Positions 9,842-10,863 of a stretch of DNA of 64,000 bases are shown here, in pieces. Under the pieces are notes generated by a model that saw only the letters and a program-made list of their open reading frames with translations, did not search any database and was not told the DNA's origin. The first letter of the stretch is position 1, and the number at the start of each line of letters is the position of its first letter. Source of the DNA: Escherichia phage ECO07P3. The position numbers and the translations under genes are program-made. The stretch lies in the sequence record OP172786; one strand, written 5' to 3'.

Positions 9842-9917
9842 TGGTCGAGGCAGTAGGGATCGAACCTACGACCTAGGACTTAGAAGGTCCTTGCTCTTCC
9901 TTCTGAGCTATGCCCCG
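9842..9917 (-). tRNA. tRNA-Arg (anticodon TCT)
   Basis: Cloverleaf folded by hand from the reverse complement; anticodon loop cTTCTaa; T-loop GGTTCGATCC; CCA encoded. Confidence 0.85.
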
Positions 9918-9921
9918 TAAT

Positions 9922-9997
9922 TGGGGTGACCGATGGGAGTCGAACCCATGACTACGAGAATCACAATCTCGAGTTCTACCAACTGAACTACGGCCAC
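9922..9997 (-). tRNA. tRNA-His (anticodon GTG)
   Basis: Anticodon stem cgaga/tctcg with loop ttGTGat; T-loop GGGTTCGACTCCC. Not part of the T4 set as I recall it. Confidence 0.75.
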
Positions 9998-10111
9998 ATT
10001 AATACCTACTCCAACAATCAAGATGTCTTCACACGAAATTAAGAGAAGAGTGATCAGTTCAACCCCGATAATCGCGTCAAGTAGATATTAATGTGACAAT
10101 TGTCACAAATT

Positions 10112-10186
10112 TGGCGGACGTGATAGGATTCGAACCTATAACCAATCGCTTAACAGGCGATCGCTCTGCCATTGAGCTACACATCC
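10112..10186 (-). tRNA. tRNA-Asn (anticodon GTT)
   Basis: Anticodon stem atcgc/gcgat with loop ctGTTaa; T-loop GGTTCGAATCC; CCA encoded. Confidence 0.8.
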
Positions 10187-10190
10187 AAAT

Positions 10191-10277
10191 TGGTGGGGAG
10201 TGATGGAGTCGAACCACCCGAGTCGCAATGACAATGGATTTACAGTCCACACCGCTACCTCTACGGGATAACTCCCC
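10191..10277 (-). tRNA. tRNA-Tyr (anticodon GTA), long variable arm
   Basis: Anticodon loop ctGTAaa; class II variable arm; T-loop GGTTCGACTCC; CCA encoded. Confidence 0.75.
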
Positions 10278-10290
10278 TTAATTCTTAATT

Positions 10291-10365
10291 TGGTGGCCCT
10301 GGGTGGAATTGAACCACCATCTGGCGATTATGAGTCGCTTGCTTGAACCTTCCAGCTACAGGGCC
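10291..10365 (-). tRNA. tRNA with CAT anticodon (Met, or Ile if lysidine-modified as in T4 tRNA-Ile)
   Basis: Anticodon loop ctCATaa; T-loop GGTTCAATTCC; CCA encoded. Confidence 0.75.
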
Positions 10366-10366
10366 T

Positions 10367-10443
10367 TGGTGCTGATTGACGGAATCGAACCGCCGACATC
10401 CTCATTACAAGTGAGTTGCTCTACCTACTGAGCTAAATCAGCA
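10367..10443 (-). tRNA. tRNA-Thr (anticodon TGT)
   Basis: Anticodon loop cTTGTaa; T-loop GGTTCGATTCC; CCA encoded. Confidence 0.8.
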
Positions 10444-10447
10444 AAAC

Positions 10448-10537
10448 TGGCGGAGGCGATAGGATTTGAACCTATGAGTCGCCGGAGCGACTGCCGGTTT
10501 TCAAGACCGGTGCATTAAACCACTCTGCCACGCCTCC
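10448..10537 (-). tRNA. tRNA-Ser (anticodon TGA), long variable arm
   Basis: Anticodon stem ccggt/accgg with loop cTTGAaa; long variable arm; T-loop GGTTCAAATCC; CCA encoded. Confidence 0.85.
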
Positions 10538-10539
10538 AG

Positions 10540-10613
10540 TCTCCATACAAGGATTTGAACCTTGGGCCTCCTGATCCCAAATCAGGCGCTCTACCAAACT
10601 GAGCTACACGGAG
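10540..10613 (-). tRNA. tRNA-Pro (anticodon TGG)
   Basis: Anticodon stem cctga/tcagg with loop ttTGGga; T-loop GGTTCAAATCC; CCA not encoded. Confidence 0.8.
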
Positions 10614-10623
10614 TAAATTAAAT

Positions 10624-10697
10624 TGGAGCGGATAATGAGAATCGAACTCACATCATCAGATTGGAAGTCTGAGGTAATGCCATTATACGATATCCGC
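10624..10697 (-). tRNA. tRNA-Gly (anticodon TCC)
   Basis: Anticodon stem tcaga/tctga with loop cTTCCaa; T-loop GAGTTCGATTCTC. Confidence 0.8.
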
Positions 10698-10702
10698 AAA
10701 TT

Positions 10703-10789
10703 TGGTGCGAGAAGTGGGACTCGAACCCACAAGGAAATCATTCCGCAGCATTTTAAGTGCTGTGCCTTTACCAATTTGACCATTCTCGC
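10703..10789 (-). tRNA. tRNA-Leu (anticodon TAA), long variable arm
   Basis: Anticodon loop cTTAAaa; long variable arm; T-loop GGGTTCGAGTCCC; CCA encoded. Confidence 0.85.
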
Positions 10790-10790
10790 G

Positions 10791-10863
10791 CTGGGAATAA
10801 AGGACTCGAACCTTTGCATCCTGGAATCAAAATCCAGTGCCTTACCAACTTGGCTAATTCCCA
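10791..10863 (-). tRNA. tRNA-Gln (anticodon TTG)
   Basis: Anticodon stem ctgga/tccag with loop ttTTGat; T-loop GGTTCGAGTCC; first gene of the cluster in transcription order. Confidence 0.85.

Follow-up and report, generated by a model that had tools for sequence, protein, structure and literature searches.

An eleven-gene tRNA operon of apparent mosaic make-up in Escherichia phage ECO07P3 and its possible relation to tRNA-cleaving host defences

The tRNA operon of Escherichia phage ECO07P3 (sequence record OP172786), which we analyzed within a stretch of 64,000 nucleotides (the window), has its closest described counterparts in the T-even phages. In T4 (NC_000866) the genes follow one another in the order Gln, Leu, Gly, Pro, Ser, Thr, Ile, segB, Arg, rnaD and rnaC. 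The tRNA region of T4 is non-essential, and SegB, a homing endonuclease, cuts tRNA T-arms and co-converts the flanking tRNA genes (PMC2330249). A different allele, found in T2L, RB1 and RB3, lacks segB and contains genes for tRNA-Met(CAT), tRNA-Tyr, tRNA-Asn and an isoacceptor tRNA-Arg (Brok-Volchanskaya et al. 2008, PMC2330249); about 99.6% of the progeny of crosses between T4 and T2L have the T2L allele replaced (PMC2330249). T6 is another mosaic, with a T4-type Ile, a T2-type Tyr, segB and a T4-type Arg, and without Pro, Ser, Asn or His. Outside the T-even phages, T5 carries tRNAs that act against host defence: tRNA-Tyr against retron-Eco7 and Septu, and tRNA-Lys, tRNA-Thr and tRNA-Asn against the AriB nuclease of PARIS (PMC11555353, PMC12409363, PMC11464382). 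Our analysis of the ECO07P3 operon, which has tRNAs for Tyr, Asn and His in addition to the eight anticodons of T4 (the classical eight), suggests that it is a further mosaic of the T-even type. The extra tRNAs, perhaps including His, probably serve mainly to buffer the phage against tRNA-cleaving defence systems, with a secondary role in meeting the demand for Asn and Tyr.

Over the whole window, ARAGORN predicts exactly eleven tRNA genes, all of them on the minus strand and within positions 9842-10863 (Table 1), and no tRNA outside this cluster. In order of transcription they are Gln (TTG), Leu (TAA), Gly (TCC), Pro (TGG), Ser (TGA), Thr (TGT), a gene with the anticodon CAT, Tyr (GTA), Asn (GTT), His (GTG) and Arg (TCT). 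The Rfam family RF00005 matches 11 of 11 above its gathering score, ten of them at 59-74 bits (E 1e-10 to 1e-14); tRNA-Tyr, at 30.2 bits against a cut-off of 29, barely passes because of its 3-bp D-stem and its long variable arm. All eleven fold into cloverleaves, the Gln and Pro genes lack an encoded CCA, and the spacers between neighbouring genes measure 0-13 nt, with the single exception of 114 nt between Asn and His. Such a cluster is far beyond chance, and the eleven tRNA genes are real. An initial annotation had proposed these eleven minus-strand genes, with the same order and anticodons, and had described the cluster as uninterrupted by an endonuclease gene. ARAGORN and RF00005 recover every gene, ARAGORN with each cloverleaf and each anticodon as proposed, and the only open reading frames (ORFs) inside the cluster are spurious ones that overlap tRNAs; no homing endonuclease gene is among them. 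The interval proposed at that time, 9842-10863, covers only part of the RNA operon, which runs on through an ORF, rnaD, rnaC and a terminator to ~9136.

Table 1. Positions of the tRNA genes and associated features of the operon in the window
Feature	Position	Strand	Remarks
tRNA-Gln(UUG)	10790..10863	-	ARAGORN, Rfam; without encoded CCA; abuts Leu
tRNA-Leu(UAA)	10703..10789	-	ARAGORN, Rfam; identical to T2 and T6
tRNA-Gly(UCC)	10624..10697	-	ARAGORN, Rfam
tRNA-Pro(UGG)	10539..10613	-	ARAGORN, Rfam; CCA not encoded
tRNA-Ser(UGA)	10448..10537	-	CCA encoded in the window and T2, not in T4
tRNA-Thr(UGU)	10367..10442	-	T4-type; T2 has an ORF in its place
CAT-anticodon tRNA, probably Ile2-type	10291..10365	-	T2 allele
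tRNA-Tyr(GUA)	10191..10277	-	class II, long variable arm
tRNA-Asn(GUU)	10112..10186	-	identical to T2
Preferred 27-bp SegB recognition site GGTTCGAATCCTATCACGTCCGCCAAA	10110..10136	-	T-arm/3' end of the Asn gene; exact 27-mer
14-bp perfect palindrome GTGACAATTGTCAC	10093..10106		5' edge of the spacer, between Asn and X
X, conserved ~95-nt putative structured RNA	9998..10092	-	tRNA-sized slot; covariation
tRNA-His(GUG)	9922..9997	-	C73 and encoded CCA; T at -1
tRNA-Arg(UCU)	9842..9917	-	T2 allele; tRNA-Arg of T4/T6 unrelated in sequence
116-aa ORF (T2L 'trna.2' ORF; phrog_3355)	9475..9825	-	111/117 identical to T2
rnaD (species 2 RNA) homologue	9358..9478 (about)	-	T4 alignment
rnaC (species 1 RNA) homologue	9212..9353 (about)	-	T4 alignment
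GC-rich hairpin and U-run, presumed operon terminator	9136..9162	-	identical to the sequence after T4 rnaC

The operon lies at the same genomic position as that of T4, between the trna.2-4 ORFs/ipI and the e.x genes, and its Gln-Thr genes, rnaD, rnaC and terminator are near-identical to those of T4. The alignment with T4 is near-perfect from upstream of Gln through Thr and then ends 12 nt into the CAT-anticodon tRNA; the flanking ORFs and the Gln-Thr genes align at about 97-100%. To the T4/T6 type, the identity of the CAT gene is about 50/77 and that of the Arg(UCU) gene 48/76. The corresponding values for T2 are 75/75 (CAT), 86/87 (Tyr), 75/75 (Asn) and 74/76 (Arg). Since the CAT and Arg alleles are T2-like and not T4-like, the 3' half is a replaced cassette rather than a T4 operon with insertions, and the Gln-Thr genes are the only T4 orthologues among the window tRNAs. 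The window shares with T2/T2L (EMBL AJ880101; AP018813) the CAT, Tyr, Asn and Arg genes, the downstream ORF, the absence of segB, the preferred SegB site in Asn and a Ser gene with encoded CCA, and the primers published for T2L fit the window at the CAT, Asn and Arg genes and at the ORF. T2 differs in having an ORF in the tRNA-Thr slot, in lacking tRNA-His as well as the putative structured RNA that we call X, and at 8 positions of the Gln anticodon arm. T4, in turn, has segB and its own Ile and Arg sequences, lacks Tyr, Asn, His, X and the 116-aa ORF, and has a Ser gene without encoded CCA; X is also absent from T6.

In the initial annotation, the first seven genes and Arg were said to follow the T4 order, with Tyr, Asn and His as extras. 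The order of the anticodons is indeed that of T4, but the CAT and Arg genes are non-T4 alleles; and although all three extras are absent from T4, Tyr and Asn are already part of the T2L/RB1/RB3 allele (PMC2330249). Relative to T2 and to phage ime09, whose array equals that of the window minus the spacer and His, only a spacer-plus-His module has been added. About 190 bp long, this module sits between Asn and Arg with CCAAAT/CCCAAT microhomology at its borders; it contains a 14-bp palindrome, X and tRNA-His. The window allele is, then, made up of three parts: a T4-type Gln-Leu-Gly-Pro-Ser-Thr block; a T2-type Ile2(CAT)-Tyr-Asn-Arg block; and the X and tRNA-His module.

The preferred SegB site has been described as GGTTCRANTCC...CCAR, with G6, A16, G18, A26 and A27 as its distinguishing bases (PMC2330249). 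All five are present in the 27-mer of the window Asn gene, and the T-arm site of the window Ser gene differs at exactly these five positions, as published (PMC2330249). The window allele can accordingly be classed as a segB-less type that is predicted to be SegB-sensitive, and its segment from the CAT gene to the ORF would be cut and converted if a segB+ phage infected the same cell. We attribute the break of the T4 alignment at tRNA-gene boundaries to SegB-driven cutting and conversion of the segB-less allele; the locus as a whole is a hot spot of cassette shuffling, with junctions at tRNA borders. Among the relatives, vB_EcoM_11B_SA_NWU combines the eleven tRNAs of the window with a homologue of SegB (51% identity, E 9e-69; OR062527.1, locus L003 524-1144) that lies between His and Arg.

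The allele is widespread. Many annotated Tequatrovirus genomes, among them those of JLBYU22, the Shigella phages SH7 and ESh26 and the Yersinia phage ZN18, show 97-99% identity along the whole of a 1.4-kb region. At least partial matches to this region occur in 1079 phage records, and 265 cover 80% of it or more. For the 3' half (CAT to Arg), 186 records cover at least 80%, and vB_VIPECOOM01 is 100% identical. JLBYU22 has the same eleven tRNA genes and the same flanking ORFs. With annotated arrays of 97-100% identity in about 190-265 Tequatrovirus records, the configuration with eleven tRNAs is therefore already in the databases many times, and we take the cluster to be a common, already annotated allele of the T-even tRNA operon. 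A literature search on 11-tRNA Tequatrovirus clusters matched only mitochondrial genome papers. As an inventory the cluster adds little, since the array is annotated in many GenBank records and its parts appeared in publications of 2008 (T2L) and 2026 (T6). It is of use as a clear case from nature in which T-even tRNA operons exchange cassettes at tRNA borders, between a segB-bearing and a SegB-sensitive allele.

By analogy with T4, the array would be transcribed as polycistronic precursors from upstream promoters, and host RNase P, 3' trimming enzymes and the CCA-adding enzyme would then yield the mature tRNAs. The classical eight would read A-ending codons that are heavily used by an AT-rich phage, and the extra tRNAs would keep translation going once defence systems deplete the tRNAs of the host. 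The Gln gene adjoins the Leu gene in a manner that resembles the Gln-Leu dimeric precursor of T4. Compared with T4, T2 and T6, tRNA-Gln has 8 substitutions, all of them in the anticodon arm (10820-10840) and with pairing kept, and its anticodon loop reads UUUUGAU instead of CUUUGAC. The pattern corresponds to a swap of the anticodon arm, a kind of change that has been proposed to evade anticodon nucleases.

The gene with the CAT anticodon is labeled Met by ARAGORN, which is the default for this anticodon. In 5412 of 5426 complete E. coli genomes its best match is an annotated tRNA-Ile, and it shares with E. coli tRNA-Ile(CAT) an identical acceptor stem (GGCCCT/AGGGCC) and an identical 19-nt anticodon arm. 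It also carries C4-G69 and C5-G68, which are reportedly determinants for TilS, and ATA makes up 14.1 per thousand of the codons in the ORFs of the window. We conclude that this tRNA is probably of the Ile2 type and not a Met, and that it is a probable lysidine-modified reader of AUA. It would match the tRNA-Ile of T4 in function, although the two sequences are not orthologous.

The proposed role in counter-defence is based, for Tyr, on experiments with T6 and the consistent resistance of T2 to Septu, and, for Asn, on sequence comparison with the targets of PARIS AriB. The variable arm of tRNA-Tyr is where Septu (PtuAB) cuts this tRNA (Chihara et al. 2026, PMC13096335). Septu strongly restricts T4, a phage without a Tyr gene, and T2 is resistant, while T6 is rescued by overexpression of its tRNA-Tyr or by SegB-driven amplification; overexpressed T6 tRNA-Tyr also partly suppresses the degradation of host tRNA-Tyr (PMC13096335). 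The window tRNA-Tyr is orthologous to the rescuing T6 tRNA, with 85/87 identity and an identical variable arm. AriB cuts the host tRNAs Lys(UUU), Thr(UGU) and, secondarily, Asn(GUU) between nucleotides 40 and 41 in the motif U36AAUC|N41, possibly with minor cleavage products from tRNA-His and tRNA-Pro, and the tRNA-Lys of T5 is made AriB-resistant by substitutions at positions 39 and 41 (PMC12409363). In the window, tRNA-Asn reads U36-A-A-G39-C40-G41, where the host has U39 and C41, and tRNA-Thr reads U36-A-A-U39-G40-A41; both depart from the host motif at or next to the cut.

The logic resembles that of T5, in which phage copies of nuclease-targeted tRNAs carry substitutions near the cleavage site. 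The phage family and the tRNA sequences of T5 are, however, unrelated to those of the window, which has no tRNA-Lys. By the published data, the phage should therefore still be sensitive to PARIS. The variable tRNAs of these operons (Tyr, Asn, Thr and perhaps His) coincide with the species cut by Septu, retron-Eco7 and PARIS, and this coincidence leads to a testable prediction of host range: the phage should behave like T2, which is Septu-resistant, and not like T4. Colicin E5 cleaves the tRNAs with GUN anticodons (Tyr, His, Asn and Asp), which offers a lead only.

Several points weigh against defence as the main role of the extra tRNAs. The tRNA-Tyr of T6 is itself cut by Septu, and its rescue is a matter of dosage only (PMC13096335); a single tRNA-Tyr copy may protect only partially, and the window, being segB-less, cannot use SegB-driven amplification in cis as T6, which carries segB, can. 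Evasion of AriB by the Asn and Thr variants is something we infer from positions shown to matter in tRNA-Lys. The tRNA set could also be, in part, neutral cargo of endonuclease-driven gene conversion. Finally, the use of tRNA-His in translation is doubtful, because His is used less than in the host and the encoded G-1 is missing.

The G-1 nucleotide, together with C73, is the major identity element for the bacterial (E. coli) HisRS (PMC9976931). The window tRNA-His has C73, with a 3' end of ...CACCCCA, and the GUG anticodon, but position -1 is encoded as T (window 9998), where E. coli hisR has G. A register in which G9997 serves as G-1 was rejected; it breaks U8, A14, G18-G19 and the D-stem and leaves an acceptor stem of 6 bp. 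The G-1 is also missing from the His genes of KP01, the Serratia Vequintavirinae phage ChuuTotoro and mycobacteriophage Bonray. A search of the literature on phage tRNA-His without G-1 found nothing specific.

Could the extra tRNAs simply supply what phage genes, and the late genes in particular, require in Tyr, Asn and His decoding beyond what the host provides? Demand was estimated from 70 non-overlapping long window ORFs (18,855 codons) and 40 E. coli K-12 coding sequences (14,215 amino acids). The classical eight fit such a view well: they read A-ending codons that are frequent in the window ORFs (per thousand, AGA 10.8, ACA 21.3, TCA 20.4 and GGA 22.8, in addition to the ATA codons above) and rare in E. 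coli by standard codon tables. Asn accounts for 5.86% of the residues against 3.90% in the host (1.50x), with a value of 6.29% for the late structural block on the plus strand. For Tyr the figures are 4.22% against 3.23% (1.31x), so that the suggestion of the initial annotation that the extra tRNAs match late-gene codon usage finds modest support for Asn and Tyr. It does not hold for His, which is used at 1.33% against 2.33% in the host (0.57x), and Tyr shows no late excess, with 4.16% in late and 4.33% in early genes. Moreover, Lys (1.77x), the most enriched amino acid of all, and Asp (1.29x) show an enrichment of the same order or greater, yet neither has a phage tRNA; T4 manages without all three tRNAs, and T2 and ime09 without His; and the tRNA-His of the window lacks its G-1 identity element. 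Demand thus accounts well for the classical eight and weakly for Asn and Tyr, and it does not account for His; we regard supply as the sole explanation of the extras as somewhat unlikely.

An account that dispenses with function holds that the set results from repeated endonuclease-driven conversion and illegitimate recombination at tRNA ends, the extras being selfish or neutral and of little selective value. T4, T6, T2, ime09, UGKSEcP2, 11B_SA_NWU and the window are set apart from one another by cassettes of whole genes whose junctions lie at tRNA borders, in line with this account, and the microhomology around the His module, the co-conversion of tRNA genes that flank a SegB cut and the dispensability of the T4 tRNA region (PMC2330249) also agree with it. 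It is, however, improbable as a full explanation, given that the extras keep perfect cloverleaves and identity elements (A73 in Tyr, G73 in Asn and C73 in His) in some 190 genomes or more, where they are 97-100% identical, are still 80-87% identical across genera, and include in T6 tRNA-Tyr a member with a measured phenotype (PMC13096335). The G-1-less tRNA-His, and perhaps the X RNA, might instead act as decoys that soak up tRNA-targeting nucleases or other tRNA-binding factors, since an encoded G-1, on which the E. coli HisRS depends so heavily (PMC9976931), is missing in every phage tRNA-His copy examined; the partial sparing of host tRNA-Tyr by overexpressed T6 tRNA-Tyr (PMC13096335) and the minor AriB products reported for tRNA-His (PMC12409363) point in the same direction. 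Against decoys, no tRNA-His-specific nuclease has been shown to restrict these phages, and with C73, a GUG anticodon and encoded CCA the gene looks as a chargeable tRNA should; the U at -1 might stay in place, or a low level of charging might be enough. We consider a decoy role decidedly improbable, and a T-even mosaic whose extra tRNAs mainly buffer host defence remains our preferred reading.

The X element, which occupies most of the Asn-His spacer, appears to be an undescribed structured RNA with covarying pairs. Its predicted fold comprises a long terminal stem, a 5-bp stem that bears an extended hairpin, and a further hairpin of 4 bp whose loop has 7 nt. In an alignment of nine sequences, 96.4% of the pair cells form standard pairs and 10 of the 31 pairs change on both sides, compared with 4.4 +/- 1.4 in shuffles (0 of 500 reach 10) and 0-4 in slid controls. 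Thirteen distinct sequences aligned to the covariance model give 28 double-change cells against 9.7 +/- 3.1, a count that leans towards structure because this alignment was fitted to the model. The structure is assigned to the strand of the tRNAs because of its invariant G-U pairs and of the gap in model score, ~120 bits in sense against ~20 bits in antisense.

X is found in 355 phage records, which belong to Tequatrovirus, Jiaodavirus, Karamvirus and one Vequintavirinae phage, and the covariance model does not find it in T4, T2, T6 or ime09. In the arrays of Klebsiella Jiaodavirus and Enterobacter Karamvirus, X and His occur at 80-87% identity, with X between Gln and His. The Vequintavirinae phage W70 carries X alone, between Gly and Gln, and a metagenomic T2-type array (contig L040) has the order Asn-X-Arg and no His. 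X would thus be an autonomous module, since it is found before His, Gln or Arg; its place in front of Gln in W70 and of Arg in L040 led us to discard the idea that it is a mere 5' leader of tRNA-His. Copies outside the window lie at loci L006 (1573-1678), L007 (253-358), L011 (390-497) and L040 (1902-2006).

Other identities for the spacer were considered and set aside. X does not correspond to a known RNA in Rfam 15, a scan of which with 9998-10111 gave no family match at E <= 1. Nor is it a relative of rnaC or rnaD: its covariance model has no match at E <= 1 in the T4 locus or in window 9130-9480. Like X, the rnaC and rnaD RNAs of T4 are tRNA-sized RNAs inside a tRNA operon that are not tRNAs, but X would form a separate family with a different fold. 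The spacer was rejected as a promoter, with 5 consensus sites against 6.2 expected in shuffles, and as a terminator, with 1 site against 1.7, the sole hit being the 5' hairpin of rnaD on the other strand. Pattern matches at loci L017, L018 and L020, at 13 metagenome loci and at all 4 loci in bacterial metagenome-assembled genomes were attributed to chance, as they do not align outside the seed and get no score from the covariance model; X was not found in these four bacterial matches. The palindrome GTGACAATTGTCAC next to X is confined to Tequatrovirus copies of the module, and its 3' half (GUCAC) has an alternative pairing partner in GUGGC, the five nucleotides with which tRNA-His begins.

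The literature searched, an incomplete body, contained no description of X. With slightly less than even confidence, we suggest that X represents an undescribed family of tRNA-sized RNAs in phage tRNA arrays, which may be processed together with the tRNAs. It may help the neighbouring G-1-less tRNA-His to mature or serve as an RNA-based counter-defence, comparable to rnaC and rnaD, which are likewise suspected but unproven as stable RNAs. X and the G-1-less tRNA-His might be the only new parts of this operon. An RNA of this kind in a tRNA slot, and a tRNA-His without G-1 in hosts that depend on G-1, could open up new RNA biology if confirmed experimentally.

Downstream of Arg, the region from rnaD through rnaC to the terminator has 92% column identity to T4 overall, and the 3' end of rnaD reads ...GCGCACAG in the window and ...GCGCACCA in T4. 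The function of rnaC and rnaD was still unknown in 2025 (PMC12685909). The flanking ORFs have no Pfam match, and their PHROGs matches are to families of unknown function only.

The relatives show further variation in the ORFs around the array and in how it is annotated. UGKSEcP2 has an additional ORF upstream of Gln; a 171-aa ORF occurs upstream of Gln in one relative (locus L004 1550-2065) and also in T2. The 133-aa ORF that T2 has at the tRNA-Thr slot (locus L023 5711-6112) is misannotated as 'tail sheath monomer'. The records of SH7, A2 and ECP2301 leave the tRNAs unannotated, and that of ime09 omits Tyr. In the JLBYU22 record (OK272484.1), the gene in the Asn slot is labeled as a second tRNA-His(gtg); a switch from an Asn to a His anticodon was rejected, since ARAGORN reads this gene as Asn(gtt) and the label is an error of the GenBank annotation.

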